Shown: piece by piece, positions 30,979 through 51,432 of the stretch
Layout: each line of letters opens with the position of its first letter
Position numbering within the stretch: the stretch's first letter is position 1
Source: a bacterium
Lineage (GTDB): Bacteria > Hinthialibacterota > Hinthialibacteria > Hinthialibacterales > Hinthialibacteraceae
Length of the DNA: 64,000 bases
Direction of reading: 5' to 3'
NCBI GenBank assembly: GCA_963663405.2
Contig: CAXXSM010000022.1
Location: forward strand, 1 to 64,000
Notes under the pieces: generated by a model
Told to the model about the DNA's origin: nothing
Seen by the model: only the letters and a program-made list of their open reading frames with translations
Database searches by the model: none
Position numbers and translations under genes: made by a program

Positions 30979-31074
30979 GGAGGTGACGGGGGCCCGGTGG
31001 CTCCTGCGGTCTTCAAAACCGTTATGTCGCGTTGTCGCGTGATGGGTGGGTTCGACTCCCATTCACCTCCGCCA
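30979..31074 (+). tRNA. selC: tRNA-Sec (anticodon UCA)
   Basis: 8-bp acceptor GGAGGTGA/TCACCTCC, G discriminator + CCA, long D stem, anticodon loop CT-TCA-AA (TCA at 31013-31015), long variable arm, T arm GTGGG-TTCGACT-CCCAT; 96 nt; close to selA/selD. Confidence 0.96.
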
Positions 31075-31231
31075 TTCCCTTTCCTTCATAGCATTATTCA
31101 ATGCAAAAAAAATTGATTACATAGAATTTGTCTTTCATGGGCGTGACGCCCGCGCTCCATTCTGAAATAAACTTATACGGCTTTCGTATCGTTTAATCAA
31201 TGAATTCAATATCTCTTTTTCCGGTATATTC

Positions 31232-33262
31232 ATGAAACACTTAATCTCATTACTGACCGCGTTCATTCTTTCTCTCACATTCACTGAATTTCCTTTATGC
31301 GCGTTGGGGGATGGGGGGCGTTTGACGTTCTCGGAATCCATCTCCTCTTCCACGCAGATTGTTCTGCCGCTCCGAAGATCACGTCTCTATAGTTCCAAAC
31401 AAGCCGCGTTTCAGTTGGATGGAGATGTACCCGTCCCTGGATATTACATCACAAAAGACGATGACGCGCTGATCCAGATGTTCGTCTCTAAGGAAAATCC
31501 CAACCGATTGTTCAGCGATTTAAACCGCGACGCTCAATGTCAATCCAATGAATTATTCACACCGGTGGAATCAGTTCCCCCCTATAATACATATGACAGT
31601 TACCTTTTCGATTCCGCCCGGACGCTCATTCAAGCAGGGGATTGTATAGTGACAATCCAAATTCGAGCGGTAGTAATCAACTACAGCGATTTTGTTACAC
31701 TCTATATCGACCGTATTTACAGCCATTATAAAGGTTCCCTGCAGATTGATGGGAAAGACTATCCCGCTGTACTCGCATTCCAATCTCCTTCTCCCACTGA
31801 CAAAAAGAACAATGAAATCATCATCCTGGATACAAATGGAGACGGTATCTACGATCGTAATGTAGACCAGTGGTTCTCAAGCCAGGGATTCGCTTATATT
31901 GACAGCGCGCCGTGGAGTGTGAAAACCCTCTTTACCCAGGGCGAAGCGCAAGTCACTCTCGAACCATATACCGGGCCTGTTGGAACAGTGAAAATCGAGG
32001 GAGAAGGTGTCCAACGATTTACACTCTCCCGGCGCAAGGAAGTGGATTCCGAAATTCCACAACATAGTATTGGATTAAAGGGTGAGCCTGGGTTGAGTTA
32101 TATGCTCCCCGCTGGGATATATGATGTTCGCGAAGCGTGGTTGCAATCGATAAATCAACCCGGCGATATCGTTTTCAAACTGCACGATGAATATAACAAT
32201 TATGGATTGGATGAATACTCCAGCGGTTTTAAAGCGCAATATTTTAAAAGCGTTGATCCAGGAGAAACCACCGTATTCCACCTCGGCGGGCCTTTGAAGG
32301 AAACGATTGAAGCCAACGCCCCTCCTCTTTCAATGGAGGTGAATGTCGAATATAGATATTTTGAAAATAAAGATGGCTTGATTTTCGACATCCTAAAAAT
32401 CAATGATCCAGCGGCGGAATATCCCTATTCAAATCCCCCATTTTTCATTGCCGATCAAAATAAACGGATAATCGCTTCCAATCAATTTCATGCGTGGATT
32501 GGTGGAACCGCTGAGGGAGGCATCCATTACGGCGCCGTCCGGATGCCGTTTTTCGCTTATGGAACGTATACCGCGACTGTCGCGTCAGACTACGATATTG
32601 TCCAAACCGAACCGGTTTCTTTTACCTTCTATCCCCTAGGCGCGCTCTCATGGAGTATCATTACACTGTTTTGTGGAGGAGCGATCGTGTTTTCCCGCAT
32701 GAGCGCGGATCGTGTGACAAGATCGAGAGCCTGGGTGTTTGTTCCTGGATTGATCGGATTGATCACGTTTCTGTTTGTGGACCGGTTCTGGATGCCTGCG
32801 GCGATATTTTTAGAGGTTGTGACAATGACGTTCCTTGTATGGGGATGGAGTGGAATCCGGTCTATCGGAAAGTTTTCGTTCATAGCTCTACTCGTCAGTG
32901 TTTTGATTCTCGGCTTGAATTATACATGGGCGGGGATGATCGACGAATCAAATCTATTACACGCGATTCTCTACCTGTTGGGATTGGTCATTCCTCTCAT
33001 CGCCATCCGCATTTCGGTTCAAAAACGGATATCTACCGGTCGATTGATCGCCGGCGTCTTGATTGGGATCACAATTCCCCTTCTTGGCATAATCGCCCAG
33101 CCGGAGAGGCAATGGGCGCCGTGGTGGTTTCTCGCGTATTCACTTGGTTTCTTCTCTCTCTGCGCCATGCCTTTCGCCATTCTCCTACGTTGGAATCTCT
33201 GGGCGGGAAGAAACTCCGGACTTGTCACGGCGCCGTTTCATCACGATGAATCATTAGGTTAA
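31232..33262 (+). CDS. Membrane protein whose extracytoplasmic domain resembles the UGA-containing family but lacks Sec; C-terminal multi-TM region
   Basis: Colinear motif similarity with the 44423-49347 proteins (see findings); signal peptide; about 7 C-terminal hydrophobic helices. Confidence 0.65.
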   Translation: MKHLISLLTAFILSLTFTEFPLCALGDGGRLTFSESISSSTQIVLPLRRSRLYSSKQAAFQLDGDVPVPGYYITKDDDALIQMFVSKENPNRLFSDLNRDAQCQSNELFTPVESVPPYNTYDSYLFDSARTLIQAGDCIVTIQIRAVVINYSDFVTLYIDRIYSHYKGSLQIDGKDYPAVLAFQSPSPTDKKNNEIIILDTNGDGIYDRNVDQWFSSQGFAYIDSAPWSVKTLFTQGEAQVTLEPYTGPVGTVKIEGEGVQRFTLSRRKEVDSEIPQHSIGLKGEPGLSYMLPAGIYDVREAWLQSINQPGDIVFKLHDEYNNYGLDEYSSGFKAQYFKSVDPGETTVFHLGGPLKETIEANAPPLSMEVNVEYRYFENKDGLIFDILKINDPAAEYPYSNPPFFIADQNKRIIASNQFHAWIGGTAEGGIHYGAVRMPFFAYGTYTATVASDYDIVQTEPVSFTFYPLGALSWSIITLFCGGAIVFSRMSADRVTRSRAWVFVPGLIGLITFLFVDRFWMPAAIFLEVVTMTFLVWGWSGIRSIGKFSFIALLVSVLILGLNYTWAGMIDESNLLHAILYLLGLVIPLIAIRISVQKRISTGRLIAGVLIGITIPLLGIIAQPERQWAPWWFLAYSLGFFSLCAMPFAILLRWNLWAGRNSGLVTAPFHHDESLG

Positions 33263-33378
33263 TGTAAACGAACCACCCCGCTCAACCGTTGATTTTAAAA
33301 AGAGGATCAACGAAACTGAACGAGAAAAGGTGGGGCGTTCGGCGCCGCAAACAACAAATTAATCACATCAATAAAACA

Positions 33379-34749
33379 ATGAATAAATCACCTGATCCAC
33401 GAAGTCTGCTGCCTTCCGTCGATCGTGTCTTGAACAGCATGAGCGCGGCGCCGGATATGGAGCGTTTTTCCCATCAGCAAAAAGTTGACGCCACTCGGTT
33501 GGTTTTAAACCAGATGAGGGTGGATTGGAGCGGCGAGACAGGTCCATCCAGCGAAGAAATCGCTCAGAAAGCCGCGTCTCTCTTAAAAGCGCGGGACCGG
33601 TCCGGTATCCGGCGCGTCGTGAACGGCGCCGGAATCATTTTGCATACAGGCCTGGGCCGGGCCGTCGTTCCCCGCGAGGCGATGGACGCGATCGCGGAAC
33701 TGGATGGATACTGCAGCCTGCAGATCAATTTAGAAGATGGTTCACGCGGCCGGCGCGACGCTGTGATTGAGGAAATCTTACAAACGATAACAGGAGCTGA
33801 AGCGGCCACGGTGGTGAATAACAACGCGGCGGCGACGCTGCTTGTATTGGCGGCGTTATGCCAGGGGAAAGAACTGATCGTCTCGCGCGGGCAATTGATT
33901 GAGATCGGCGGCTCATTCCGCCTGCCTGATGTGATCGCGCAAAGCGGGACGGTGATGGTGGAGGTGGGAACGACCAATAAAACCCATCTGCGGGATTACG
34001 CCAACGCGATCACGGAAGAAACGCGCGTCCTGCTGCGCGTCAATCCGAGCAATTACCGCATCATCGGTTTCAGCCAATCCATCTCAACCGCTGAGCTGGT
34101 GACGTTGAAAGAAGGGCGGGATCTGATTGTCGTAGACGATCTTGGCTGTGGCGCGCTGGTTGATCTAAGCCTGTATGGACTGCCGAAAGAACCTACCGTG
34201 CAGGATAGTATCGCGGCGGGCGCGGACGTGGCGCTGTTCAGTGGGGATAAACTGATTAGCGGACCACAATCCGGGATTATTGTGGGTAAGAAAGAATACA
34301 TCGCCAAAATTCGGAAACATCCCTTAGCGAGGGCGATGCGGGTGGGTAAATTCACCATCGCGGCGCTGGAAGCGACTTTGAAATTGTTCCTCAATCCCGA
34401 TACATTGGTGGAAAACCATCCCACTTTACGCATGATCTCCATGAAACTTCCCACCTTGCGTCAGAAAGCGCAGTTTCTCGCGCAACGGCTTTCTTCCATT
34501 ATTCCATGCCAGGTCATCGAGGAACAAAGCGCCTGCGGGGGCGGCTCGCTGCCGGACTGCCCGCTCGATACCGCGGTTGTATCCATGCGTCATGAACGGC
34601 TGAATGCGGCTGAATTCGCGCAGCGCCTGCGCATGGGAGAGCCATCCATCATCACCCGCGTTCAGAATGAGGCTGTTCTGATTGATGTACGGACATTGCA
34701 GGATGGCGACGAAGAGCGAATTGAAGCCGCGATCAAAAAACTCAAATGA
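33379..34749 (+). CDS. selA: L-seryl-tRNA(Sec) selenium transferase
   Basis: LPSVD, VVNGAGIILHTGLGRA, VNNNAAA, SRGQLIEIGGSFRLPD, EVGTTNKTH, FSGDKL (PLP Lys). Confidence 0.97.
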   Translation: MNKSPDPRSLLPSVDRVLNSMSAAPDMERFSHQQKVDATRLVLNQMRVDWSGETGPSSEEIAQKAASLLKARDRSGIRRVVNGAGIILHTGLGRAVVPREAMDAIAELDGYCSLQINLEDGSRGRRDAVIEEILQTITGAEAATVVNNNAAATLLVLAALCQGKELIVSRGQLIEIGGSFRLPDVIAQSGTVMVEVGTTNKTHLRDYANAITEETRVLLRVNPSNYRIIGFSQSISTAELVTLKEGRDLIVVDDLGCGALVDLSLYGLPKEPTVQDSIAAGADVALFSGDKLISGPQSGIIVGKKEYIAKIRKHPLARAMRVGKFTIAALEATLKLFLNPDTLVENHPTLRMISMKLPTLRQKAQFLAQRLSSIIPCQVIEEQSACGGGSLPDCPLDTAVVSMRHERLNAAEFAQRLRMGEPSIITRVQNEAVLIDVRTLQDGDEERIEAAIKKLK

Positions 34750-34782
34750 AGCATTATTTTTTTTAAAGGGAAAGGGAGCGAA

Positions 34783-35994
34783 ATGAATTCAGATTGCTCT
34801 GGAAATCCACCTCAACCACAACCATCCGAATGCTGTCAAACGAAGTCCACCTGCGCGCAAAGCCCGATAGCGCGTTTTGAAAACATGATCCCCAACGCGC
34901 TGGCGTTCGCGCAGGACGCCAAAGCCAAGGGGCAGAAAATCGCGGGGATCTTCTGTGAATATGCGCCGCGTGAATTGTTCTTCGCCGCCGGGATGGTTCC
35001 TATTTGCATGTGCGGAGGACAACAATCCACCATTCCCGAAGCGGAGACGGAACTTCCCAGCAATCTCTGTCCAGTGATTAAATCCAGCTATGGCCACCAT
35101 CTCAAAAAATCCAATCCTTTCTTGGAAATGTCCGATCTCATCGTCGCGGAAACGACATGCGACGGGAAGAAGAAAATGTATGAGTTGATGAGCCACGGCC
35201 GCAACATCCACGTCATGGAATTACCCCAAAAACCAGATGAACAAACCGCCTTCAATCATTGGCTCAACGAACTCCATCTTTTGAAAGAGAAGATCGAAGA
35301 AGTAACAGGAAAGACAATCGATCGGGAAGCGTTATTAAGCGCGATTGAGAGAATGAATGAAGAACGCGATCTGCGGCGGGAAATCGCCTATCTAGCCTCT
35401 GAGAATCCACCCTTGGTCACTGGCAAAGAAGCGCTGCTCGCGAAAAGCAGCGTCTCGCTGATCCCCTGTGACATAGCGGGATACAAGAAAATTCTCGAAT
35501 GGGCGAAAAACCGGCCCAGCCCCTACAATGGACAGCTCCGGATTTTAATGACAGGCGTTCCCCATCCGCACGGAGCCGAGAAAGTGATGGAGATCGTGGA
35601 GGAGTGTGGCGGCGCGATCGTCGCGCAGGAAAACTGCACAGGACTCAAACCGATCATGGACAACGTAGTTACCGACAGCGATCTAATGGAAAATCTCGCC
35701 CGGAAGTATTTTGATCTGCCCTGCTCCTGTATGACCCCCAATCAAGGACGAACCGATTTGCTCAACCGGCTTATAAATGATTTTAAACCGGATGGTATGA
35801 TCGATCTTGTTTGGCAGGCCTGTCATACCTACAACATCGAAGCGGAATTGATCCGCCGGGAAGCGCGGACACGCTGGAATCTTCCCTATCTGAAATTAGA
35901 AACCGATTATTCCCCCTCCGACCGGGCGCAGTTAACAGTGCGTGTGGAGGCGTTTTTGGAATTATGCCGGTCGAATGGATCGAAGAAATCTTGA
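34783..35994 (+). CDS. 2-hydroxyacyl-CoA dehydratase family / double-cubane cluster (DCCP-like) protein
   Basis: GIFCEY.P.E, CMCGG, NLCPVIKSSY, ETTCDGKKKMYE, ENCTG, CSCMTPN, QACHTYNIE, ETDYS. Confidence 0.85.
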   Translation: MNSDCSGNPPQPQPSECCQTKSTCAQSPIARFENMIPNALAFAQDAKAKGQKIAGIFCEYAPRELFFAAGMVPICMCGGQQSTIPEAETELPSNLCPVIKSSYGHHLKKSNPFLEMSDLIVAETTCDGKKKMYELMSHGRNIHVMELPQKPDEQTAFNHWLNELHLLKEKIEEVTGKTIDREALLSAIERMNEERDLRREIAYLASENPPLVTGKEALLAKSSVSLIPCDIAGYKKILEWAKNRPSPYNGQLRILMTGVPHPHGAEKVMEIVEECGGAIVAQENCTGLKPIMDNVVTDSDLMENLARKYFDLPCSCMTPNQGRTDLLNRLINDFKPDGMIDLVWQACHTYNIEAELIRREARTRWNLPYLKLETDYSPSDRAQLTVRVEAFLELCRSNGSKKS

Positions 35995-36188
35995 GCTAAG
36001 TTCATCGTTTGATTTGACAGTTTTGTGGATTTACGCCAGGGCAGAAAAAAGCCTTGCCCTGGGCGCCCGCGCCCATGGAAAAGGGAATGCTGGATATGGC
36101 GTAATTCGGAATAATACCAAAATGAACTAATACCTTGTTCTTGGCGCTCGTTTAGAACGAATGAGCAAAAGAGAGTTGGAGAGAATAT

Positions 36189-37841
36189 ATGCGGTTTCCT
36201 GAAAAACGTAAAACCATTATGGCGCGATCGATCGCGTTGGGGCATTGCGTCTGCAATCCGAAATTGAAATGCCCCTGCCCATCACTGATTAATGAAAACT
36301 TATGTCCCTGCGCGGGGGAACGGCGCGATCCCCCGAAAGGCCCGGTCCGTCTGACCGAATATGTGCGCAAGGTTGGCTGCGCGTCGAAAATCAATCACCG
36401 CGATCTGCATACCGTCTTGGCGCAGCTGCCCACATTTGACGATCCCCATGTAATCTTAGGTGTAGCGGCGGGCGATGACGCCGGTGTCTACGACATTGGC
36501 GGCGATTACAACATCGTTCAGACGGTTGACGTTTTCTCGCCGGTGATTGATGACGCGTATACGTTTGGGCAGATCTGCGCCGCCAATTCTGTCAGTGATA
36601 TTTACGCGATGGGAGGGCGGCCGGTCTGCGCGCTATCGATCATCGGCTTTCCCATTGAGGATCTGCCCCATGAGGTGATGGCCGAAATCCTGCGCGGCGG
36701 GATTGAGACGCTGCGGGAAGCGAATGTCAGCGTGATCGGCGGACACAGTATCAACGATGAAGAAATCAAAGGCGGCTTCGCAGTAACAGGATTGATCAAC
36801 GGCGGCGGAAGCGTAACGGTCAGCGGCGCGCGTCCAGGCGACCGGCTCGTTCTCACCAAACCTATTGGCACAGGCGTCATCGCTTTTGCCAACCAGATCG
36901 CCCGCGCGTCAGAAGACGCCCTTAAATTGATCGGTCAAATCATGGCCGGACTCAACAAAGACGCGGCGGAACTCATGATCGCGCATGGCGCGCATGCCTG
37001 CACCGACGTGACAGGCTTCAGCCTGTTAGGTCATCTTACCGAAATGACACGCCACAGCGGCGTGAGCGCCCGAATCGACACCGCCACCATACCATTCCTC
37101 GCCGAAGCGATCGGGGGCGCCCGGCAGGGAATCATTCCCGGCGCGATCGAACGCAACAAAGAAGCGTTCTCACAAGGCATTTCCACCGATGGCGAAGAGG
37201 ATGCGCTGCTCAATCTACTCTATGACGCTCAAACCTCCGGCGGTCTTTTAATCGCTTTGCCAGAAGAGGGAGTGGGGCCTTTTATCAAAGCGATGCGGTC
37301 ACGCGGTCATGAAGCGGTTTCGGAAATCGGAACCATCGTGGAACCAGAAGAATCACTCATTCATGTCACCCTTAACGAATCCACAAATCTCGTGGGTGTC
37401 TATCAAGAGATCCCCCCGAAAGAAAAACCGGAACCCATTCAACCCAGCGCCGAACCACTCGCCTGTTGTGAGAATCCTCCCAGCGCGGAGGTTAAAAAAT
37501 CCGTTACAGATAGCGCCTCAAAACCGTCCCTATCTATGGCGCTTGGATCTCCCTCCGCGGAGCAAACGGCATCCAGCGAAGCGTTTAAACAATTCATGAA
37601 AAGCGTCAATACGCCAGGGAGCCTCGATGCGCGGATGAAGCGGTTGTTGAACGTCGCCTTAGCCACAGCGCAGCGGTGCGAACAATGCCTGCAGATCCAT
37701 ATCGAACACGCGTTGTCTGAAGGGATCTCCCGCGGCGAGATCGATGAAGCCGCCTGGCTGGGTATTTCATTCGCTGGCGCCCCGGCGAAATTGTTCTACG
37801 AAGAAACATGGCGGGAATTGGATAGGAAAGATAAGTCATAA
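36189..37841 (+). CDS. selD: Selenophosphate synthetase (Cys-type) with N-terminal Cys-rich module and C-terminal AhpD/CMD-like domain
   Basis: LTEYVRKVGCASKI, DDAGVY, QTVDVFSPVIDD, AANSVSDIYAMGG, GGHSI, LTKPIGTG, TDVTGFSLLGHL, DAQTSGGLL. Confidence 0.95.
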   Translation: MRFPEKRKTIMARSIALGHCVCNPKLKCPCPSLINENLCPCAGERRDPPKGPVRLTEYVRKVGCASKINHRDLHTVLAQLPTFDDPHVILGVAAGDDAGVYDIGGDYNIVQTVDVFSPVIDDAYTFGQICAANSVSDIYAMGGRPVCALSIIGFPIEDLPHEVMAEILRGGIETLREANVSVIGGHSINDEEIKGGFAVTGLINGGGSVTVSGARPGDRLVLTKPIGTGVIAFANQIARASEDALKLIGQIMAGLNKDAAELMIAHGAHACTDVTGFSLLGHLTEMTRHSGVSARIDTATIPFLAEAIGGARQGIIPGAIERNKEAFSQGISTDGEEDALLNLLYDAQTSGGLLIALPEEGVGPFIKAMRSRGHEAVSEIGTIVEPEESLIHVTLNESTNLVGVYQEIPPKEKPEPIQPSAEPLACCENPPSAEVKKSVTDSASKPSLSMALGSPSAEQTASSEAFKQFMKSVNTPGSLDARMKRLLNVALATAQRCEQCLQIHIEHALSEGISRGEIDEAAWLGISFAGAPAKLFYEETWRELDRKDKS

Positions 37842-37971: not shown

Positions 37972-39849
37972 ATGTACAATCGAGTGAGTGTCTTGTATGT
38001 AATTACAGTTATGAGTTTTTGTCTTGCGGGTGGAGCCGTTCTCTTGATGGCGGCTTCGGATGTAGAAACAGTAACGATAGGGGCAACGGTTCCAGACATT
38101 GAAGCGGATAGTATTGAAGGGCTTCCAGTCTCTTTCCGTCCGCCGGAGGGAAAGATTCTGCTCGTTCAGTTTATGGATTCAAGCGCAGATCAAGCCGATG
38201 AATCCATCCGGGATCTAATCATTCTCTATGGACGTTTCCGTGAGAGCGGTTTACATCTTTTAAATGTGTTTATGGATACTAACGAGGATCAAGTCATCCG
38301 TTTTTCAACACGGTGGCAGGTCCCCTGGGCGCAGGTGTTGGACGCGGATATGGAAGGCGAAAGAGCCTCTCAAGTTTTCGGCGTTAAAGAATTCCCCTGC
38401 AATTTCCTGCTCGATTCAGATGGCAAGATTCTCGCATTAAATCTCACTGGAGAGAACGCGCACAACTTAATCGCCGAACAGCTGAACGTCTCACTCGATT
38501 CCCTGCCAATGCCCGAAGCGCCCACACCGATCTCCGAAGGAGGATCGAGCAACCGGGATGCGATAATCGCTACGGCGTCCCGCGTTCCAACAATTAATCT
38601 GCTGGGCACGAAACAAGAACGCGAAGAAGTGGAAGCCTGTAAAGAATACCTTCGGAAAATCAGCCTCGCTCTCACGGCTTACAAGCAGGATCATGATGGG
38701 GAGCCGCCGAATTGGCTTCACGAACTGTTTCCCAAATACCTCCAAGATGAGAAAATTCTTATATGCCCTTGCCCTTTGGCTAGATCCGTCCAGACACAAT
38801 TAAAACTCGATCCAGAGATGAGATGCAGTCATTTATACGAATTTGCTCCATCGGAATTGACCGGGGGAGAGTATTCATCCTATAGGGAATGGAAAAAATC
38901 TCAACTTAACCAGTTTGGAGACAAAACGCCTATTGTGCGTTGTCTGTACCATTCGAGACCTTTGAGTTTATCGTATGGAGGCGAAATCTATTTCAGTTCG
39001 CAGGTTTGGGAAAATGATTTTCCGCAGGGCTGCAGCATCCATGATCCTGACGCGAAAACTCGAAAAGCAATGATGGACATCGCGCTCGCGCTGGATCGAT
39101 ACAAGAAAGAGAATAACACGATACCAGATGAACTTAGGGATCTTTATCCGAAATACATCCGAAACGAGACATTTTACCTCTGTCCCAGCACTGAACAGCC
39201 ATTTTCCTATCAGTTTTCGAAAAAATCCGGTTTGCGGGAATGGAAAACAGAACAGCTAAAGATCTACGGCGGTTATGTGCCCATCGTCCGGGCTCGGGGG
39301 GTTCTTAGAAACGGGAATGTCATCAATCTGGCGTACAATGGCGAGATCTACGAAAGCCCCAGTGTTTGGGAGACTCTCTTCATTCGTGACAGAGCCGCGA
39401 TACTGAAATCAACGGCCGCCGATCGAAAAGCCATTTCCGCACAATCCCCAGAAATAAGCAAGGCGGAAATAGATATGCGTTCGTTATCGGTCGCGCTCGA
39501 ATCCTTTTTTATTGATAACAATACCTACCCTCTTCCACTAGAAGGGCAGTCCATCGACAAAGTAGGGATTAAAACCAGTTCCAGAACGATTCGTCTGACT
39601 ACACCCGTCCGGTACATCACTAAAATACCCAAAGATCCGTTTTCGAAAGAATCCGGTTACTACCATTATCACAGTGATGGGAAAAATTTTTACATTCTGG
39701 CCTCTGACGGCCCCGATCAGAAGCCGGATTTCGATGTGAAACAATACGATCCGGGCAAAGGTTCGAAGAAAAATGATCTCAAAACCTTTACCTACGATCC
39801 CTCAAACGGATTAAACAGCCGAGGTGACCTTTTCAAAGTAGGACCTTAA
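37972..39849 (+). CDS. Membrane-anchored protein: CxxC-less redoxin-like domain, two pseudopilin-like repeats, GspG-C-like domain (paralog 1)
   Basis: GGAGG RBS; IGATVPDI…GKILLVQF…FP.NFLLDSDGKI; C..YLRKI..AL..Y..DH.G..P..L..L.PKYL; TTPVRYI..IPKDPF…ASDGPD…YDPSNG..S.GD. Confidence 0.65.
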   Translation: MYNRVSVLYVITVMSFCLAGGAVLLMAASDVETVTIGATVPDIEADSIEGLPVSFRPPEGKILLVQFMDSSADQADESIRDLIILYGRFRESGLHLLNVFMDTNEDQVIRFSTRWQVPWAQVLDADMEGERASQVFGVKEFPCNFLLDSDGKILALNLTGENAHNLIAEQLNVSLDSLPMPEAPTPISEGGSSNRDAIIATASRVPTINLLGTKQEREEVEACKEYLRKISLALTAYKQDHDGEPPNWLHELFPKYLQDEKILICPCPLARSVQTQLKLDPEMRCSHLYEFAPSELTGGEYSSYREWKKSQLNQFGDKTPIVRCLYHSRPLSLSYGGEIYFSSQVWENDFPQGCSIHDPDAKTRKAMMDIALALDRYKKENNTIPDELRDLYPKYIRNETFYLCPSTEQPFSYQFSKKSGLREWKTEQLKIYGGYVPIVRARGVLRNGNVINLAYNGEIYESPSVWETLFIRDRAAILKSTAADRKAISAQSPEISKAEIDMRSLSVALESFFIDNNTYPLPLEGQSIDKVGIKTSSRTIRLTTPVRYITKIPKDPFSKESGYYHYHSDGKNFYILASDGPDQKPDFDVKQYDPGKGSKKNDLKTFTYDPSNGLNSRGDLFKVGP

Positions 39850-44422: not shown

Positions 44423-45949
44423 ATGAAGTGTGCCAAGTCTTCCCTCCTGGGATTGGTTTTCATCGCCGCCTCCGCGTTTCTCTTCGCGGATACCGCCTCC
44501 GCGGTTTCCTGCAAACTGGAGTTGAAACGGCTTGAAGATAAATCTTCAATGGTACGGAGCGCGCAGGATGAGGACTATATCCTGCGGAGGGTAAGCAGAC
44601 AGTACTTTTCATGGCGTCCGGACCGGGATACCATTCCCGAATTTACAAACGCTGTGAAAAAAGAACCGCCGAAGTATGAGTATGAAAATCCTTACAAAGG
44701 CGTGATGACGTTGGGTTCCGATAAATACTTATTTGTATTGGATTCGAGCGATATCAACACGAAAGGATTTCATAAACTCTACTTCGACCGCAATCTCAAC
44801 GGCGATTTGACGGATGATTCCGTCATTGAAGCCATGGCGCTGCCAACCGGCGTTAACTTCGGCCCCGGCTCGATGCGCCGGGAATTTCCCCGGCAGGACC
44901 TGATGGTGAACGTGGATGGCAAGAAGCATGATTATTCGGTCTTTTTCGAAGCCTATTCCGACACACGGGATGGAGGAAATCTTCGGTACGCCTACACGCA
45001 AGCCGGCGCCGGCGCCTATCGCAAGGGAGAAGTGGAATTGGAGGGCAAAACGCATTCCATTTTCCTGCTCGATTTCAACAGCAACGGCCGTTTTGACGAT
45101 GTGACGACTGTAAACGAAAATGTCCAATACAGCAATGGCCGGATTTATCCTTCGCAGGGCGACCGGATCTTGCTTGATTTTAGCGCGCAGAACACCGATC
45201 CCTCGTATTACAATCTGACGGGCCGTAAAGACCGTGTGCCTGTCGCCAAACTGGTTTTCGTGAATGGGAAGTATTACGAGATGACGGTCTCTCCCTCCGG
45301 AGATTCCATCGAACTCACCCCATCCACAACGCCAACCGGTTCGATTGAGAACTCGAACGATGTGTTTGACGTCGCCCTTTACAACAAAGAGGGCGTGCTC
45401 AAACTGAACGGCAAGAAAGGCGACAAAATTTCTGTGCCGGAAGGTGAATGGAAGCTGCTCGAATATACGATCGATCTAACCGACTCCTCCAACACATCTG
45501 GACGGCAAGGCTGGACTTTGATCGCCGCTTCCGGAACGAAGAATTGCCCAACCGTGAAAGTAGAGAAAGGGAAAACCGTTGAATTTCCCTTCGGCAGCCC
45601 CTTCAAACCTCTCGTTCAGACGCAGCCCATGGGCCGCTCGAACGGTCAGGTGGAACAAGTGCGGCTGAGTCTGGAATTTACAGACTGTTCCGGCGCGATC
45701 TGCACGAATCTCTACGTCAACGGAAACCGCCCTCCCGATCCCACCTTCGCGATCGCCACACCCAGCAATGAAATCGTGGAGCGCGGCAAGTTTGAATATG
45801 GCTGAGGCTTTACCTGTTCGTACACATGGCGTGTACCTTCTAAACTGCAAGATGAATACCGCGTCCATGTCCGCATGAATGCAGGACCTTTCAAAGTCGA
45901 TAAAAAAGCATACAGCGTGATCAAATCATCAACACTGAAAGGATTGTAA
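44423..45949 (+). CDS. Putative secreted selenoprotein, paralog 1 (508 aa; Sec461 at TGA 45803-45805; FEYG-U-GFTC)
   Basis: AGGAGG RBS, signal peptide; the frame continues past TGA as GFTCSYTWRVPSKLQDEYRVHVRMNAGPFKVDKKAYSVIKSSTLKGL-TAA; SECIS-like hairpin; lies between selD and selB. Confidence 0.88.
45820..45836 (+). promoter_or_regulatory. Putative bacterial SECIS hairpin (paralog 1)
   Basis: GTACAC-ATGGC-GTGTAC starting after a 14-nt spacer from the UGA. Confidence 0.8.
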
Positions 45950-45992
45950 GCGCCTCTTTCAGCAGGACTTACCTATGCGCGGAATAATCATA

Positions 45993-46021: not shown

Positions 46022-46120
46022 GTTCTCTCACAGGTGAGGAAATATGGTATTAGGGAAAGACGAAATACCAACCGAATCCAAATCGAAAAGTCAATTCGAT
46101 AGAAAGGACGGTTAGAGATT

Positions 46121-47650
46121 ATGAACTCCTGCAAGCGTTCCCTCTTTGGATTCGTTCTCATCCTTGGCGCCCTGTTTCTCATCCTTGATCCCGCACACGG
46201 TGCGACCTTCAAACTGGAGTTGAAACGGTTTGAAGATAAATCTTCACTCATACTAAGTAATGAAGAGGAAAGAATTCTTCAAAAAGTAAAAACCCAGTAT
46301 TTACCGTGGGATCAAGAGCGTTCTATGACACCGGCTTTCATAAAAGCCGTAAAAAAAGAACCCACTGTATATGAATCGAATACACTGTACAGAGGTGTGA
46401 TCCAATTCGGATCGGATCAATATGGTTTTGTATTGGATTCAAGCAATATCAAAAGGGAAGGTTTCAACAAACTCTATTTCGACCGCAATCTCAATGGCGA
46501 TTTGACGGACGATCCCATTATCGAAGCCAAGGCTTTGCCAAAAGGCGTACATTTTGGTTCTGGTATAATACTGCGGGAATTTCCCCGTCAGGATCTTACG
46601 GTGAACGTAGGAGGGAAATCGTACGATTATTCATTCTTTTTGACTGTATCATCCGATGAACGAGGTCCAATCCGGGGATCGCTGCAACACGCCCGCGCCT
46701 ACATCACCCCCGGCGCCTATCGCATGGGGAAAGTCGTATTGAATGGCAAAACGCATTCCATTTGCCTGCTTGATTTCAACAGCAACGGCCGTTTTGATGA
46801 TGTTACGGTAATACATGATAGAGTCAATAAAAGAACTAGCCGGATTTATTACACGCCTGGGGACCGGCTTCTACTCGATTTCAACCCGAAGAACGCCGAT
46901 CCTTCCTATTACAATCTGACGGGACGCGAAGACCGGGTTCCCGTTGCCAAGTTACTGTTCGTGGACGGGAAATATTATGAGATGACGGTCTCTCCATCGG
47001 GAGATTCTATCGAACTTATCCCCTCCACGGCGCCCACCGGTTTTATTCAGAACTCAAACGAAGTGTATGACGCCGCTCTCTACGGCGATCAGGGGATTCT
47101 CAAATTGACAGGGAAAAAAGGCGATCGAATTCCCATCCCGGCAGGAGAATGGAAACTATTGGAATATACGATTGATCTGACCGATCCAGAGAAAAGATTC
47201 CGGATCCCACACGCTTTGACGCTGATCTCCGCTGCAGGGACAAAGAACTGTCCATCGGTAAAAGTAGAGAAAGGTAAAACCGTCGAATTCCCATTTGGCG
47301 GCCCCTATAAACCTCTCGTCCAGGTGAGTTCTGTCGGTTTTGGAACAGCCATCCCCCAAGCGCGGTTGAGTCTGGCATTCACGGACTGCGCCGGCGCGAT
47401 TTGTACGAATCTATATGTAAAAGGAAACCGGCCGCCCAATCCATCGTTTACAATCGCTACGCCTAGCAATGAAATCGTGGAGCGCGGCAAGTTTGAATAT
47501 GGCTGAGGCTTCACCTGCGCGTACATATGGAATGTACCATTAAAACTTCATGATGAATACCACTTCCATGTCCAAATGAAAGCGGGACCATTTGAAGTCG
47601 ATAAAAATTCATACAGCGTGATTAAATCCTCAATGCTGAAAAGGAAGTAG
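46121..47650 (+). CDS. Putative secreted selenoprotein, paralog 2 (509 aa; Sec462 at TGA 47504-47506)
   Basis: Continues as GFTCAYIWNVPLKLHDEYHFHVQMKAGPFEVDKNSYSVIKSSMLKRK-TAG. Confidence 0.86.
47521..47537 (+). promoter_or_regulatory. Putative bacterial SECIS hairpin (paralog 2, compensatory U-A pair)
   Basis: GTACAT-ATGGA-ATGTAC at the same spacing. Confidence 0.8.
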
Positions 47651-47817
47651 GTTTCTATTTCATGAAGAGGAAACAATGCAAGTATTACTCAAATGGGACT
47701 CAATTTTAATTCCCATTACATCTCCACCCTCAGGCAGGAGAGTATATAATAGGAAAGGTCATACAACCAGCCGTTCCTATCGAAACATCAATCCAATCGA
47801 AAGGATGGTAAAAATTC

Positions 47818-49347
47818 ATGAAGTTCGGCAAACGAATCTTTTTAGGATTCTTTCTCCTTCTCGTCGCTGCGTTTCTCTTCACGGATACTGCGAACGCAGT
47901 GACCTGTAAATTGGAATTGAAACGGTTTGAAGACAAATCATCAATGTATGAGACCGCTGGAGATGAAGAACCAATCCTGCGGAGAGTGAGAGGGCAGTAC
48001 CTGCGATGGCGGCGAGATCAGGCCACGACGGCGGATTTCGTCGAAGCCGTTAAAAAAGAACCGAAGTATGAGTCAGATATCCTGTACCGGGGTGTGATTA
48101 CCTTAGGTTCGGATCAATACGGTTTCGCGTTAGATTCAAGCGATATCATAAAAAATGGATTTCACAAATTCTATTTCGACCGCAATCAAAATGGTGATCT
48201 GACAGACGACGCCGTCATCGAAGCCATGCCATTGCCAAAAGGCGTCAACTTCGGTCCCGGCTTTATGCAACGCGAATTCCCCCGGCAGGACATGACAGTT
48301 AACACCGATGGCAAGAAGTATGATTATTCATTCTTCTTACTTGTGTATTCCGACACGCAGGGACAATCCGATGGATCACTGCGATACGCCTCCGCGCAGC
48401 TCAGCACAGGCGTGTATCGAAAAGGGGAAGTGGAACTCGACGGCCAACAACATACCATTCACTTGCTCGATTTCAATTGCAACGGCCGTTTCGATGATTC
48501 AACCACAATACGCGACGATATCCGGAACGATAATGGACGGATCTATCAAACACACGGCGATCGAATCATGCTTGATTTCAATGTTGAAAACGCCGATCCC
48601 GCGTATTACAATCTGACGGGACGGAAAGACCGTCTCCCCGTTGAAAAACTGTTATTCGTCAATGGGAAATATTATGATCTGACGGTTTCTCCATCGGGCG
48701 AATCTCTTGAATTCACTCCATCCAAGGCGCCACTCGGTTCGATTCAAAACAAGAACGAAGTGTTTGAATTCGCCCTCTACAACGATCAGAGTGTGCTCAA
48801 ACTGTCTGGCAAGAAAGACGATCCAATTCCCATCCCAGAAGGGGAATGGAAACTGCTTGAATACACAATCAATCTCACCGATCCAGCAAAAAGTTCCCAG
48901 GGCCGGCGATCGTGGACATTGCTCTCCGCCGCAGGGACCACGAACTGCAAACCGGTGAAAGTGGAGAAAGGGAAAACAGTTGAATTCCCCTTTGGCGGTC
49001 CCTACAAACCTCTAGTGCGGGTAAATCCGATGGGTTCAAACAACCAAGTGGATCAAGCGCGAGTAAGTCTAGAATTTATTGACAATGTAAGCGCGATCTG
49101 CACCAATCTCTACGTCAACGGAGACCGGCCGCCTGATCCAACTTTCGTCATCGCCACGCCCAATAATGAAATCGTGGAGCGCGGCAAGTTTGAATATGGC
49201 TGAGGCTTTACCTGTTCGTACACATGGCGTGTACCGACAAAACTTGAAGATGAATACCGTGTTCACGTTCGCATGAAAGCAGGGCCTTTTGAAGTTGATA
49301 AAAAAGCCTATAGCGTTATCAAACCTTCGATGCTTAAATTCAACTAA
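47818..49347 (+). CDS. Putative secreted selenoprotein, paralog 3 (509 aa; Sec462 at TGA 49201-49203)
   Basis: Continues as GFTCSYTWRVPTKLEDEYRVHVRMKAGPFEVDKKAYSVIKPSMLKFN-TAA. Confidence 0.88.
49218..49234 (+). promoter_or_regulatory. Putative bacterial SECIS hairpin (paralog 3)
   Basis: GTACAC-ATGGC-GTGTAC, extendable by TGTT/GACA below a C-C mismatch. Confidence 0.8.
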
Positions 49348-49385
49348 GTTCTTATTTCATAAGGACCAAGCTATACGCGTGTAAC

Positions 49386-49422
49386 AAAACGGGGCGGGAT
49401 TGAAAATCCCACCCCGTTTTTT
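49386..49422 (+). terminator. Rho-independent terminator
   Basis: AAAACGGGGCGGGATT-GAA-AATCCCACCCCGTTTTTT; homologous to 45993-46021. Confidence 0.8.
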
Positions 49423-49478
49423 AATCCGAATGAAAAACCGGCGAATAGAATCCTTCCCACAGGAGAATTCTCAAAACG

Positions 49479-51432
49479 ATGAAAACAGGCAAACGAAAAC
49501 CATTCAAACCTGCCCGCAATCTCCCCCCACCCCTCAACGTCACCATTGGTGTGGCCGGTCATATTGATCATGGGAAGACCGAATTGGTGAAAATGTTAAC
49601 CGGCTGCGACACCGACCGGTTGAAGGAGGAAAAAGAACGGGGCATGTCCATCGAACTGGGATACGCGCCCCTGTCATGTCGGCGCCAACCGGGTGGGGAT
49701 CGTGGATGTGCCGGGTCATGAGCGTTTTATCCGCAACATGGTCGCCGGGGCCACCGGGATGGACATCACGTTGCTGGTCATCGCCGCTGATGACGGCGTG
49801 ATGCCGCAAACTCGCGAGCATCTCGATATCGCGCAACTCCTTGGCGTTCAGCGTGTGATCACAGCGATTACGAAAACCGATCTCGTCTCCCCGGATCGGA
49901 TTGAAGAAGTCCGGCGGCAAATTGAAACATTCTTAGAAGCGACCCGGTACGCAGGGGCTTCTATCACTCCCTGTTCATCCGTAACCGGTGAAGGATTGAC
50001 TGAACTGCGTCAACAGATGGACGCGGCGGTTCAAGCTGTCGAACGGAAAAAAACCAGTGGAATGTTCCGGCTGCCAATTGACCGGATCTTCACTTCCGAG
50101 GGGCATGGTGTTGTCGTTACGGGTATCGCGATTTCCGGCAGCGTGAAAGCCGGTGAGATGGTAGACCTGCTTCCATCTGGAAAAACCGGCCGTGTGCGCA
50201 GTTTGCAGGTTTATCTCGGCGATGCGGAAGAAGGCATCGCCGGACAATGTGTGGCGCTCAACTTGACGCAAATCGGAAAGGACGAATTCACACGCGGCGA
50301 CGTTCTCGCATCTCCAGGACGGTTCTCCGCTTATTATCGTTTTACCGCGCGGGTGCAATCTTCGCTCTTTTTAGAATCTCCGCTGCGGAATTCCGCCCGG
50401 ATCCGATTTCATACGGGAACATCGGAAACACGGGGAAAATTGCGGCTGATGAACGATGACTCCCTCGAACCGGGTCAAGAGACATTCGCTCAGATCGAGT
50501 TGGATGAACTCGTTCCTGCGTTTCTTCACGACCGGTTCATCATCCGGCTGGAATCGCCGCCCCGCACCGTCGCGGGTGGAACCATAATCGAATGCGGAGG
50601 TTTTCGCCGTAAACGTTTTCATGAGCCTGTTTTGCGTCAACTGCGGAATCGCTGGGACGCGTTATGTAATAATACCAAGTTAATTGAGATTCTGCTTGAA
50701 GAGACGCCGTTCCACTCTCAATCGATCGAAGAACTCGCGAAAGCGATAGGCGTCCCCAATTCTGAAGCGCAACAGTTGGTTCAAACGATTATCCAGAAAC
50801 AGAACGCGATCACGTTGAAAGAGAACCGTATTGTCTCATCTTCAGGATTGCGGAAAGCCGCTAATTATACGCTGGACACGTTGAAAAAACTGCACACCGC
50901 CCATCCCACCCGCTTTGCGTTTACAAAAGACGAAATCCGCGCCGGGATGCAAGAAGGTGAGGACCTGATTGACCCGGCTCTCGCGCGGCTTCTTAATGAA
51001 CACCGCGCGATTCTCTCCGGCTCTTCATACCGTGACGCCGAAGCGGTTGACGCGGATCCCCAAACGCTCGCGCTGGCGAAGCAAATCGAACGTCTTCTCT
51101 TCGAAGAGAAATTTAAAACTTCCTCCCCCGCGCAACTGGCGGAGAAACTGAGACGCCCTGTGGCCGCCATCGAATCCACATTCAAATATCTTGTTGAAAA
51201 AGGCGCCGCGATCCGGCTGGCAGAAACGGTCTATTTGCACAACAAGCATGTGGAATGGGCGAAAGAACAACTTATCAAAGCCATTCAACGGGATGGATTT
51301 TTTGAAACGCACCTTTTCAAAACCGTCATCGGAAGCAGCCGGAAATACGCGATCCCCCTATTGGATCATTTCGACGCCACGGGAGTCACCCGCCGCATTG
51401 GCGGCAAGCGTTATTTACAAGAGAAGAAATAA
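49479..51432 (+). CDS. selB: Selenocysteine-specific elongation factor SelB; one apparent +1 indel in the C run at 49668-49671
   Basis: [66 protein letters not shown]-terminal [17 protein letters not shown] winged helix. Confidence 0.93.

Follow-up and report, generated by a model that had tools for sequence, protein, structure and literature searches.

A putative selenocysteine island combining Sec-decoding genes with a candidate family of exported U-x3-C selenoproteins in the Hinthialibacterota

Genes for selenocysteine (Sec) decoding have been described beside client genes: fdhA lies next to selAB in the Proteobacteria, and several selenoproteins are encoded together in the SAO and Tso operons (PMC13188914). 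The window analysed here is a stretch of 64,000 nucleotides from a bacterium of the Hinthialibacterota (contig CAXXSM010000022.1; genome assembly 82 % complete). It contains a cluster that is like these operons in that machinery and several candidate selenoprotein genes occur together, the latter as paralogues in tandem. Unlike them, it holds the full set of four machinery genes, selA, selB, selC, and selD, its client is an exported protein of unassigned role and not a formate dehydrogenase, and no Pfam or NCBIfam (20.0) model matches the client family.

A first-pass annotation of the window had proposed a gene order running from selC to selB. Every element that it named was located, in that order and on the + strand, within a cluster of ~20 kb (Table 1). 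As assembled, selB carries a 1-nt frameshift and is read in two frames, the CCCC run at 49668-49671 having one C too many. This run is CCC in independent contigs: the contig from run X3 is one base shorter at 49668, and the X5 contig implies the same one-base loss. These contigs are of low depth (about 4); the frameshift is probably an assembly artefact.

Table 1. Features of the cluster, with positions in the window and the profile scores obtained
Feature	Position	Strand	Evidence and remarks
selC, tRNA-Sec, anticodon TCA	30979..31074	+	ARAGORN; Rfam RF01852, 69.2 bits (gathering score 47)
TM676, 676-aa ORF	31232..33262	+	B-type (membrane-anchored) subfamily, without Sec; from profile alignment
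selA, selenocysteine synthase	33289..34749	+	TIGR00474, 530.6 bits (cut-off 267.9); likely start ATG at 33379
Double-cubane-cluster protein (DCCP)-type anaerobic reductase	34783..35994	+	NF040772, 413.6 bits (cut-off 350); PF06050, 1.4e-100
Three-part SelD, SelD::AhpD fusion	36189..37841	+	TIGR00476, 340 bits (cut-off 125); CMD/AhpD domain PF02627, 51.7 bits (cut-off 23)
TrxPil1	37972..39849	+	AhpC-TSA PF00578, 31.1 bits (cut-off 26); PF08334, 34.4 bits; start from alignment
TrxPil2, paralogue of TrxPil1	40264..42174	+	PF00578, 26.4 bits (cut-off 26); 73 % identity to TrxPil1
TrxPil3	42230..44278	+	PF00578, 26.5 bits (cut-off 26)
Family paralogue 1 (A-type)	44423..45949	+	TGA 45803-45805; SECIS hairpin 45820-45836
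Family paralogue 2	46121..47650	+	TGA 47504-47506; hairpin 47521-47537
Family paralogue 3	47818..49347	+	TGA 49201-49203; hairpin 49218-49234
selB, two frames	49479..51432 (49479-49721, 49693-51432)	+	TIGR00475, N-terminal piece 64.5 bits; remainder 248.4 bits (cut-off 242.25)

Each of the three UGA paralogues has one in-frame TGA followed by a conserved continuation of 47 codons, and the TGA lies in the motif F-E-Y-G-U-G-F-T-C within the C-terminal Ig-like domain. When 74 related loci and the window were searched in six frames for F-x-[YFWD]-G-(any)-G-x-x-C, 97 matches were obtained, 96 of them with TGA at the free position, which is far beyond chance, and none of the 96 close family members had a Cys codon there. 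The peptide after the TGA (GFTCxYSWRVP...) is conserved across two phyla, and the window copies share 92 % mean column identity over 128 nt, from 30 nt before to 95 nt after the TGA. Among the database matches listed, 115 out of 120 homologues end right after F-x-Y-G and none of the 120 reads through the TGA. Five Cys forms with C-x3-C (P0147, P0149, P0167, P0179, and P0220) were found among 40 hits read of the 150 that span the site; these are distant homologues and are translated straight through the Sec position. Some other distant relatives have neither Cys nor Sec at the site. TGA also serves as an ordinary stop in selA, the DCCP gene, TrxPil2, and an esterase gene.

A 6-bp hairpin starts 14 nt after the UGA and has a GUGGC or AUGGC loop (RNAalifold, 73 sequences). 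In these sequences compensatory changes occur in four of the six pairs, and 437 of 438 cells pair, with one broken; one such change, C-G to U-A, is found in paralogue 2 itself. No Rfam family matches the hairpin. The constraint on it is so strong that the encoded peptide, Y-S/T-W-R-V-P, is fixed by the hairpin, and UGA would be decoded via this hairpin with its (G/A)UGGC loop. The new UGA family of the first-pass annotation is upheld by the TGA position, the covarying hairpin, and the Cys homologues, and the three paralogues, in which signal peptides are visible, are supported by sequence comparison as a real unannotated selenoprotein family.

The paralogues consist of a beta-rich ectodomain of ~460 aa that closes in the Ig-like domain. 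In paralogue 3, Sec462 and Cys466 lie on one turn of this domain (G-U-G-F-T-C); to our knowledge, classical redox pairs are not spaced as U-x3-C. The AF2 model of this protein is all-beta (pLDDT 91.5), with residues 394-509 forming a C-terminal Ig/FN3-like sandwich, and acidic loop motifs are invariant in the family. VIA-align of the Sec domain returned generic Ig/FN3-like sandwiches, the best being 7ptp_A (Z 8.1, rmsd 3.3, 91 residues aligned), and no DsbD chain among the 50 matches listed. No tie to a known oxidoreductase was detected by Pfam, NCBIfam, or fold search. DsbD_N (PF11412) had no hmmscan match in the three paralogues at E up to 0.01; the same Pfam library detects it in another candidate from the genome (C117). 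Structural neighbours in the ESM Atlas join the same scaffold to Thioredoxin, AhpC-TSA, or Redoxin domains (TM 0.46-0.52), which is a lead only.

In the membrane-anchored subfamily the same Sec turn is followed by about seven TM helices of no recognisable family, and the B-type and A-type profiles align with a probability of 99.5 % (E 9e-23) and with their Sec positions matched. TM676 has a signal peptide, a beta-rich ectodomain of ~430 aa, and seven predicted TM helices (469-654 in the AF2 model, pLDDT 71.4). It matches nothing in Pfam or NCBIfam; hhalign places it on the B-type profile with a probability of 95.7 % (E 8.4e-9, 320 columns). Its site reads FHAW-I-GGTA where relatives have FEYG-U-GGxC, and its orthologues L095 and L083 have TGA there. 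Judged from these alignments, TM676 belongs to a membrane-anchored subfamily that contains Sec but is itself a copy without it, in agreement with its earlier description as a Sec-less homologue. The family scaffold can work without redox chemistry, because some distant relatives and TM676 lack both Cys and Sec at the site; these proteins count against a redox reading.

The SelD protein has an N-terminal 6-Cys motif (HCxC-x6-CPC-x10-CxC) before the SelD core and, at the C-terminus, an AhpD/CMD domain that carries CxxC..H. The earlier reading of Cys, not Sec, in its GCASK motif is seen in the translation and recurs in 32 out of 32 fusions. All 32 likewise retain the CxxC of the AhpD domain as Cys rather than Sec, and 51 of 52 have the 6-Cys motif. 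The gene called DCCP-like lies above the curated NF040772 cut-off. A DCCP occurs in 13 of 74 family loci, many with two HGD-D paralogues and a BcrAD-type activase, which adjoins the DCCP in relatives. No activase was found in the window's genome by tblastn with a relative's BcrAD-type query (E 1e-4), in the 82 % complete assembly.

In TrxPil1, a signal anchor is combined with DUF1559/pseudopilin-like domains and with a TlpA/ResA-like thioredoxin fold that lacks CxxC. The pseudopilin T2SSG match is confined to TrxPil1 and TrxPil2; the C-terminal domain of TrxPil3 differs and resembles that of the selenoprotein candidate C76. Against ResA (NF002854) the three proteins score 38.8-43.9 bits, far under the cut-off of 170. 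There is no CxxC at the site, which reads FMDSSADQ, FMKSSDEQ, and IWDTNSPR, nor in nine out of nine homologues read from relatives. TlpA/ResA-type oxidoreductases were considered for TrxPil1-3 and rejected on the active-site CxxC, the match being one of fold only. Their first description as redoxin/pseudopilin-like paralogues therefore holds for the thioredoxin fold, but not for redox cysteines or, in TrxPil3, for a pseudopilin match.

Comparisons of related loci give the distribution of the family that carries this Sec-coding signature, and show that it is linked to selC, selA, selD::ahpD, and selB and mostly to a NapH/MauN-like ferredoxin. Of 74 family loci, 28 (in 27 of 60 assemblies) have a gene of the Sec machinery no more than 10 kb away, as do 19 of the 34 loci of at least 18 kb. 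tRNA-Sec is present in 24 of the 74; the other 46 loci are without any sel gene over that distance. Linkage unique to this assembly, the case that the first-pass annotation held against its own proposal, did not occur. Searching in the opposite direction, from SelD::AhpD, gave 17 loci of at least 10 kb, which include the family in 12, the NapH-like gene in 11, selA in 13, selB in 13, and selC in 10. In the window's own phylum, where near-identical synteny is observed, the family is found in nine of 35 genomes: nine of the 11 selA-positive and none of the 24 selA-negative. In the tree, own-phylum and Planctomycetota sequences are intermixed within one supported set of 19 rows, which is consistent with transfer between phyla.

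The most constant neighbour outside the machinery is the NapH-like gene (21 of 74 loci in the cluster analysis, as well as 11 of the 17 long SelD-fusion loci). In the window's genome it is unlinked, on contig C123 in an unrelated neighbourhood. The proteins from relatives and from C123 have dicluster motifs and a Fer4_5 domain that passes its cut-off (50.8 and 60.7 bits against 22); TIGR02163 gives 49.2 and 53.6 bits (E 4.8e-13 and 2.2e-14), below its cut-off of 213. From this similarity, the neighbour may work like NapH.

An inventory of other selenoproteins, as the first-pass annotation suggested, added at least two UxxC candidates to the three paralogues, both exported and of thiol-disulfide type. 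In the C117 candidate, a Sec-Trx protein is joined to a DsbD_N domain. The genome yielded no molybdopterin enzyme with Sec, the single PF00384 match having no in-frame stop. The family may be a main consumer of Sec locally, as three of at least five candidates are encoded here, but not in the Planctomycetota, where it occurs in nine and selA in 221 of 301 sampled genomes. The description of the locus as self-contained fails, because the NapH-like gene is on another contig, a DCCP activase was not found, and the TrxPil proteins are free of redox cysteines.

With slightly better than even confidence, the cluster is read as a selenocysteine island, in which a Sec-decoding set and exported U-x3-C clients serve an extracytoplasmic redox or electron relay. 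selC, selA, the specialised SelD, and selB would stay beside the genes needing Sec decoding, namely three recently duplicated exported paralogues. After export, the U-x3-C pair would alternate between selenol/thiol and selenenylsulfide as an oxidoreductase or electron relay, a logic comparable to that of DsbD with its Ig-like N-terminal domain. Electrons could cross the membrane through the NapH-like protein or the TM domain of the anchored form, and the cysteine-free TrxPil proteins would be binding partners or scaffolds without catalysis. The family itself is most likely an extracytoplasmic selenol/thiol redox protein. The unusual spacing of the pair, the unlinked NapH-like gene in this genome, and the frameshift in selB as assembled count against this reading. 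Linkage to sel genes alone is no indicator of this chemistry, because co-inheritance of client and machinery also gives it. As the pairing recurs in many environmental bacteria, it would point to a selenium-dependent chemistry beyond the cell membrane that is as yet unexplored.

That the TGA simply stops translation, leaving 47 codons that are non-coding, a separate small ORF, or a decayed gene, is very improbable and already disfavoured. Gene callers do end at the TGA in 115 of the 120 entries listed, and selB is frameshifted as assembled; however, the tail peptide is kept across two phyla, the hairpin co-varies, Cys forms translate past the position, the family is confined to selA-positive genomes in its own phylum, and the selB frameshift is gone in independent contigs. 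It is also rather improbable that the family is a co-inherited surface or periplasmic protein with a structural, adhesive, or ligand-binding role, in which Sec and Cys ligate metal or crosslink and adjacency to sel genes comes only from island-wise transfer of machinery and client. The invariant acidic motifs and Ca-binding-like D-x-N-x-N-G-D-L-T-D-D loops would fit such a role, as would a multi-domain Ig-like fold resembling adhesins and S-layer proteins (best match 7ptp_A), the paralogue arrays with several dispersed copies per genome, the many loci distant from sel genes (46 of 74), and the mixing of phyla in the set of 19 rows. Set against it are the near-total preference for Sec over Cys (0 of 96 Cys) with a partner Cys four residues on, typical of a catalytic redox pair, and the electron-transfer protein that is the most constant non-machinery neighbour.

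Selenium acquisition is an unlikely though conceivable purpose. Exported Sec proteins would capture or reduce selenite, Se(0), or organic selenium as an Se-Se or Se-S adduct and pass it to the NapH-like protein or to the membrane-anchored form; inside the cell, the SelD active site would receive selenide through the ATP-driven DCCP together with the AhpD and Cys-rich parts of the SelD fusion, so that the island both supplies and consumes selenium. The island SelD is always of the specialised three-part form (CxxC in 32/32, 6-Cys motif in 51/52), the family accompanies it in 12 of 17 long loci, a DCCP adjoins SelD in 13 of 74 family loci, often with HGD-D paralogues and activase, and the island has no other obvious conserved enzyme that would define a substrate. 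Proximity to SelD is nevertheless expected, since SelD is required for any use of Sec. The DCCP occurs in only three of the 17 long SelD-fusion loci and is missing between selA and selD in the close relative G021, none of the known families of selenium transporters or carriers was detected, and the literature search found no paper linking double-cubane proteins with selenophosphate synthetase or tRNA-Sec.

Among known SelD fusions, the NADH-oxidoreductase/SelD-related proteins (TIGR04369) and the AhpD-like selenoproteins are comparable in joining a SelD core to a redox domain or in having an AhpD-type CxxC..H. The island protein differs from the former in its order (6-Cys motif, SelD, AhpD) and in scoring as a true SelD (340 against 125) with only 126 bits to TIGR04369 (cut-off 700), and from the latter in the Cys of its AhpD domain (32/32). 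The DCCP resembles reductases that work with HgdC/BcrAD-type activases, passing NF040772 and having relatives that carry an activase and two HGD-D paralogues; it differs in its association with SelD and tRNA-Sec, for which the literature search found no precedent, and in the activase not found in the assembly. Like the NapH/MauN/NosR ferredoxins, the NapH-like neighbour has Fer4_5, dicluster motifs, and weak similarity to TIGR02163; unlike them, it lies far under the cut-off (49-54 bits against 213) and has no NapG, NapA, MauA, or NosZ partner, its constant partner being the candidate selenoprotein family.

A functional parallel may exist with the DsbD, TlpA/ResA, and CcdA relays. Unlike DsbD, the family matches neither PF11412 nor any DsbD model in sequence, carries U-x3-C in place of the cysteine pair of nDsbD, and has in its B-type members a TM domain of ~7 helices of no recognisable family; the neighbouring Trx folds, unlike those of DsbD/TlpA-type relays, have no CxxC. 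Shared with these relays are a redox-type residue pair on an Ig-like periplasmic domain and thioredoxin-fold proteins as neighbours. As in DsbD, this domain is fused in B-type proteins to a membrane domain of several helices, and the same genome encodes a candidate Sec-Trx protein with a genuine DsbD_N domain.

The three UGA-containing paralogues are, on comparative grounds, a genuine selenoprotein family that had escaped annotation and that lies within a conserved Sec island. Every element that the first-pass annotation had named in this locus was found on the forward strand and in the same order, from selC to selB (see table). The paralogues are 65-69% identical to one another, and the assembly (8.44 Mb, 82% complete) has no further copies of the family. 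An Rfam scan of positions 29000-53000 (E up to 0.1) returned tRNA-Sec alone and no SECIS family, and in 31700-51650 predicted promoters (17 vs 21.6 in shuffles) and terminators (26 vs 24.5) did not stand out from the shuffled expectation.

Components of the Sec island and additional selenoprotein candidates of the genome
Feature	Position	Strand	Evidence
tRNA-Sec (selC)	30979-31074	+	ARAGORN; Rfam RF01852, 69.2 bits vs 47
TM676, 676-aa ORF	31232-33262	+	Without Pfam or NCBIfam family
selA	33289-34749	+	TIGR00474, 530.6 bits vs cut-off 267.9
Double-cubane-cluster reductase (DCCP)	34783-35994	+	NF040772, 413.6 vs 350
SelD + CMD/AhpD fusion, Cys form GCASK	36189-37841	+	TIGR00476, 340 vs 125; PF02627, 51.7 vs 23
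TrxPil1, AhpC-TSA/ResA-like domain	37972-39849	+	PF00578, 31.1 bits vs 26
TrxPil2, AhpC-TSA/ResA-like domain	40264-42174	+	PF00578, 26.4 bits vs 26
TrxPil3, AhpC-TSA/ResA-like domain	42230-44278	+	PF00578, 26.5 bits vs 26
Family paralogue 1, single in-frame TGA	44423-45949	+	
Family paralogue 2, single in-frame TGA	46121-47650	+	
Family paralogue 3, single in-frame TGA	47818-49347	+	
selB	49479-51432	+	TIGR00475
C76 candidate, 611 aa, exported	C76:129983-131815 (= L092:5984-7816)	+	PF00578 spans TGA, E 2.8e-21
C117 candidate, 391 aa, exported	C117:12130-13302 (= L093:6131-7303)	-	AhpC-TSA + DsbD_N

Similar GC-rich palindromes (ACGGGGCGGGA...TCCCGCCCCGT) lie 3′ of family paralogues 1 and 3, at 45993-46021 and 49384-49425; the latter is followed by a T run and resembles an intrinsic terminator between paralogue 3 and selB. 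Upstream of selC, 25023-30776 encodes a 1043-aa protein without family, a GNAT acetyltransferase and an AXE1-type esterase, which lie outside the island in relatives. Downstream of selB, two reverse-strand ORFs (51591-52814 and 53029-53646) share repeat blocks (...VAIVDPDEWDD...SSWRPED...NDWWWAIDN...) and have no family match above cut-off, PF18336 being sub-threshold (17.1 bits vs 25.9).

Reading continues for 47 codons past the TGA and is conserved among the three paralogues. When 5.8 billion proteins were searched by word index, 122 matched; among the 120 listed, 115 end right after F-x-Y-G, none reads through and the remaining 5 are fragments, therefore gene callers halt at the same codon everywhere. 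In GTDB species genomes, a scan detected no fewer than 221 stretches that encode the family, and 74 loci were kept. Six-frame translations of these loci and the window contain 97 matches to F-x-[YFWD]-G-(any)-G-x-x-C, with TGA at the free position in 96; the other is a spurious AAG, and a Cys codon occurs at the Sec position in none. The peptide downstream of Sec, G-F-T-C-x-Y-S-W-R-V-P, is conserved. RNAalifold, applied to 73 sites, gave a 6-bp hairpin starting 14 nt after the UGA with a GUGGC or AUGGC loop; pairing is standard in 437 of 438 cells, and compensatory double changes occur in 4 of the 6 pairs. These stem changes alter the encoded residues (S..R to L..Q; S to T in the window), therefore the RNA structure constrains the protein.

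More distant relatives supply the Sec/Cys pairs. When 1.84 billion representatives were searched exhaustively by HMMER with the C-terminal domain (394-509, with U as C), most of the 150 matches stop at the residue preceding U. Among the 40 read that run past it, five are C-x3-C forms with 30-34% identity (P0147, P0149, P0167, P0179 and P0220); in some of the others the Sec position is occupied by W, G, R or S, and further ones have lost the motif. With conserved readthrough, a SECIS, Sec/Cys pairs and a genome that encodes the Sec machinery, the family bears the classical hallmarks of selenoproteins. A reassigned genetic code is excluded, as selA, DCCP, TrxPil2 and the upstream esterase gene all use TGA as a normal stop. 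It is very improbable that the UGA paralogues are anything other than selenoproteins.

The family proteins begin with a signal peptide, for example MKFGKRIFLGFFLLLVAAFLFTDTANA. The AlphaFold2 model of paralogue 3, from a 57-row alignment, is a confident all-beta, multi-domain structure (pLDDT 91.5, pTM 0.88). Foldseek against the PDB found no whole-chain relative of this model (TM-score no higher than 0.15 by query length, 0.30 by target), and with VIA-align only the last domain (394-509) matches, to generic Ig/FN3-like sandwiches, of which the top match is 7ptp_A (Z 8.1, rmsd 3.3, 91 residues aligned). Sec462 and Cys466 are placed between strands 452-457 and 466-471, and the N-terminal half carries the invariant acidic loops D-x-N-x-N-G-D-L-T-D-D and N-S-N-G-R-F-D-D.

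Besides this A-type form, a membrane-anchored B-type subfamily was identified, with eight examples in the loci. Its proteins have approximately 150-200 aa homologous to the last two A-type domains, then FEYG-U-GG(V/T)C-x-x-SWRVP and approximately 300 aa of transmembrane helices. In hhalign the two types match with a probability of 99.5% (E 9e-23) and their Sec positions align. TM676 likewise matches the B-type profile (probability 95.7%, E 8.4e-9, 320 columns), with FHAW-I-GGTA opposite FEYG-U-GGxC, and its nearest full-length relatives, in loci L095 (30% identity) and L083 (28.6% over 528 residues), contain the TGA; therefore the earlier description of TM676 as a Sec-less homologue was correct, in that it belongs to the anchored group and has I where relatives carry U. 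In one relative, the motif is lost from a tandem copy. The AlphaFold2 model of TM676 (pLDDT 71.4) combines a beta ectodomain with seven helices that span 469-654, and VIA-align with it was uninformative on the transmembrane domain.

The family loci were surveyed with up to 10 kb on each side. Among the 74, tRNA-Sec was called in 24 (9 further calls in these loci were other tRNAs), the SelD::AhpD fusion in 15-16, DCCP in 13, selA in 6 and selB in 5. At least one of selC, selD, selA and selB is present in 28 of the 74 loci and in 19 of the 34 that reach 18 kb; by assembly, the count is 27 of 60; 46 loci are without any sel gene, partly because of dispersed extra copies and short contigs. The usual order in Planctomycetota starts, in some loci, with a methyltransferase, DCCP, two HGD-D paralogues and a BcrAD-type activase, followed by a B-type gene (some loci), selD::ahpD, selC, a NapH/MauN-like membrane ferredoxin and an A-type gene. 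When SelD::AhpD was used as the query against metagenome contigs, 39 loci were found, and the 17 of 10 kb or more contain selA (13), selB (13), the family (12), the NapH-like gene (11), selC (10) and DCCP (3). The ORF clusters c2, c4 and c13 of the locus comparison were rejected as antisense shadows, and cluster c7 overlaps tRNA-Sec. On a Planctomycetia contig, ARAGORN called a tRNA-Pyl with anticodon CTA (L008:18641-18726, reverse strand), which may be spurious.

Across 35 species genomes of the own phylum, Hinthialibacterota, the family is present in 9 and selA in 11; all 9 carriers are selA-positive and none of the 24 selA-negative genomes has the family, which is a pattern and not a statistic, the kin not being independent. 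Gene order was compared in regions from six of the eight other carriers. The order is selC..selA-DCCP-selD-TrxPil-TrxPil-family in G011, selA-selD-TrxPil x3-family x2 in G021, TrxPil-family-selB..NapH-like..TM676-like, selC, TM676-like, selA in G009, NapH-like..selB-family x2-TrxPil in G004, family-selC-NapH-like-selA-selD-selB in G001 and TrxPil-family x2 in G023. The proposed association of the family with sel genes therefore extends beyond this assembly, to own-phylum carriers and to other loci.

Of 301 sampled Planctomycetota species, 221 have selA at E up to 1e-30 (219 above the curated cut-off; G036-G335), which suggests that Sec decoding is very common across the phylum. The family is present in 9, of which 3 are strong matches (E of 1e-140 or lower), 7 are selA-positive and 5 have the family within approximately 10 kb of selA. 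It is a minor Sec client in this sample.

In a quick, midpoint-rooted maximum-likelihood tree of 91 A-type sequences, which gives no direction, the three window copies form one clade with support of 100, indicating recent duplication. Own-phylum sequences are intermixed with those of Planctomycetota in a set of 19 rows that has branch support; on the tree, four changes of the own-phylum label are required, at least two of them forced by supported branches, a pattern compatible with transfer between the phyla. Family members were also seen on contigs labelled Spirochaetia and Candidatus Nealsonbacteria (L058, L010 and L018). L058 pairs in the tree with a Planctomycetaceae sequence as its sister (branch lengths 0.19 and 0.16), which suggests mis-binning or recent transfer.

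At the ResA W-C-x-x-C site, TrxPil1-3 read FMDSSADQ, FMKSSDEQ and IWDTNSPR, and the site cysteines are likewise missing in all nine TrxPil homologues read from relatives. The TrxPil proteins are conserved thioredoxin folds that, lacking the catalytic pair, are unable to act as CxxC oxidoreductases. They lie directly upstream of the family in the own phylum and in only 3 of the 74 GTDB loci. In SelD, all 32 of 32 fusions retain the CxxC..H motif of AhpD. The core is preceded by a conserved extension, R-K-x-V-M-x-R-S-x-x-L-G-H-C-x-C-x6-C-P-C-x10-C-x-C-A-G-E (36189-36350 in the window; 51 other SelD genes in loci L003-L131), which was present in 51 of the 52 N-termini read, the lone exception looking spurious. 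This Cys-rich extension has no Pfam match, even at E up to 1, and may be a metal or Fe-S site.

The NapH-like gene of this genome is on another contig, C123, with 39% identity to a relative's copy, and its neighbours are unrelated (a PAS kinase, a DNA-alkylation repair gene and a TIR-NB-ARC-TPR gene). The last of these encodes a 978-aa protein (L091, C123:10779-13715, reverse strand). No BcrAD-type activase or extra HGD-D paralogue was found by tblastn in this 82% complete assembly.

Searches reading through stops in the same genome, an incomplete inventory, gave two further candidates. The C76 protein has a DUF2092 domain, an AhpC-TSA domain with G-U-P-A-C (TGA at C76:130967) and a TrxPil3-like C-terminal domain, and is a candidate thioredoxin-fold UxxC-type selenoprotein. 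In the C117 protein, a second candidate, an AhpC-TSA domain with W-W-U-L-Y-C is fused to a DsbD_N domain. No stop was found in matches to PF00384 (one match), PF02627, PF00085 or PF07610, and PF10262 had no match. A genome-wide scan for TGA-interrupted ORFs gave 15223 candidates, of which 997 passed a codon-usage filter before a within-genome Sec/Cys test. Most candidates from this test were antisense or repeat artefacts, leaving C76 alone, confirmed by Pfam; the scan is insensitive, since the known paralogues score only approximately 0.10 per codon in their tails. All five candidate selenoproteins are predicted to be exported. The suggestion that the family is a main consumer of Sec therefore holds in this genome, where it provides three of at least five candidate genes, but not in Planctomycetota.

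selB is read in two frames due to one extra C in the CCCC run at 49668-49671. A 2395-nt contig from sequencing run X3 spans the site with one base fewer at 49668, restoring the frame; this run is from another study, and the contig has a depth of 4.15 and 9 other differences over 601 nt. Contigs from run X2 are identical to the window and break precisely at 49669/49670, and a contig from X5 starts at 49669, its loose end implying CCC. Because of these contigs, and because the client genes and their SECIS elements are intact, an assembly error is the likeliest explanation, though at this low depth it is probable rather than certain.

The first-pass annotation had suggested that the locus may be a self-contained extracytoplasmic selenium/redox system; what it observed was confirmed, and the interpretation is supported in part, the function being putative. 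Beyond what is shown (Sec coding, export signals, fold class, two subfamilies and a conserved island), the preferred reading, slightly more likely than not, is that the U-x3-C turn would be a selenol/thiol redox pair outside the cytoplasmic membrane. Electrons would reach this pair from the NapH-like ferredoxin or from the transmembrane domain of the anchored form, and the cysteine-less thioredoxin folds would act as partners. In the ESM Atlas, stored homologue P0005 belongs to unnamed clusters only, and its structure neighbours combine a similar scaffold with Thioredoxin, AhpC-TSA or Redoxin domains (TM 0.46-0.52), a lead consistent with the redox reading rather than evidence for it. A non-redox surface role, linked to the Sec machinery by co-inheritance only, is improbable.

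A selenium-harvesting system, in which selenium is passed via DCCP and the SelD accessory domains into selenophosphate, is unlikely, though less so than a non-redox role. The exported and anchored Sec proteins would then bind or reduce environmental selenium through Se-Se chemistry, with electrons from the NapH-like ferredoxin and the ATP-driven double-cubane reductase, and the three-part SelD (6-Cys motif, kinase and AhpD domain) would channel selenide into selenophosphate. The island as a complete, transferable selenium-utilization module with its own extracytoplasmic harvesting branch is similarly doubtful. If true, no dedicated selenium-assimilation pathway coupled to Sec synthesis would have been described before this one, and a DCCP would gain its first physiological role. 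In the literature searched, no paper joined double-cubane proteins to selenophosphate synthetase, and nothing relevant tied selenoproteins, SelD, NapH and AhpD together.

No model of the selenoprotein family exists in Pfam (2025 copy) or NCBIfam 20.0. The 2025 models of Haft and Tolstoy should be part of NCBIfam 20.0, which gave no family match. Bacterial selenoprotein discovery relies on Sec/Cys pairs, and the 96 close members of this family examined have no Cys codon at the Sec position. The family has been invisible despite hundreds of public copies, because gene callers truncate it.

A search for selenocysteine or selenoproteins in Planctomycetota returned unrelated papers only. In the parts of the selenoprotein literature consulted, including those of deep-Sep (PMC12013277) and BSepDB (PMC13326102), nothing was found that describes the family, its anchored subfamily, the three-part SelD or the island. 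The family table of a 2026 selenoprotein review contains neither "Planctomyc" nor a UxxxC motif (PMC13188914). Excerpts of a paper on Porphyra planctomycetes describe fdhA and fmdB selenoproteins, with an unusual sel operon in one strain (PMC4807772). The present family adds a class of exported selenoproteins that have an Ig fold and carry U-x3-C, together with its membrane-anchored sister class, a specialized three-part SelD and a recurring NapH-like partner. Because its clients adjoin selC, selA, selD and selB, the island is a compact, testable unit for asking why some lineages retain Sec decoding and whether bacteria have a dedicated selenium supply route.
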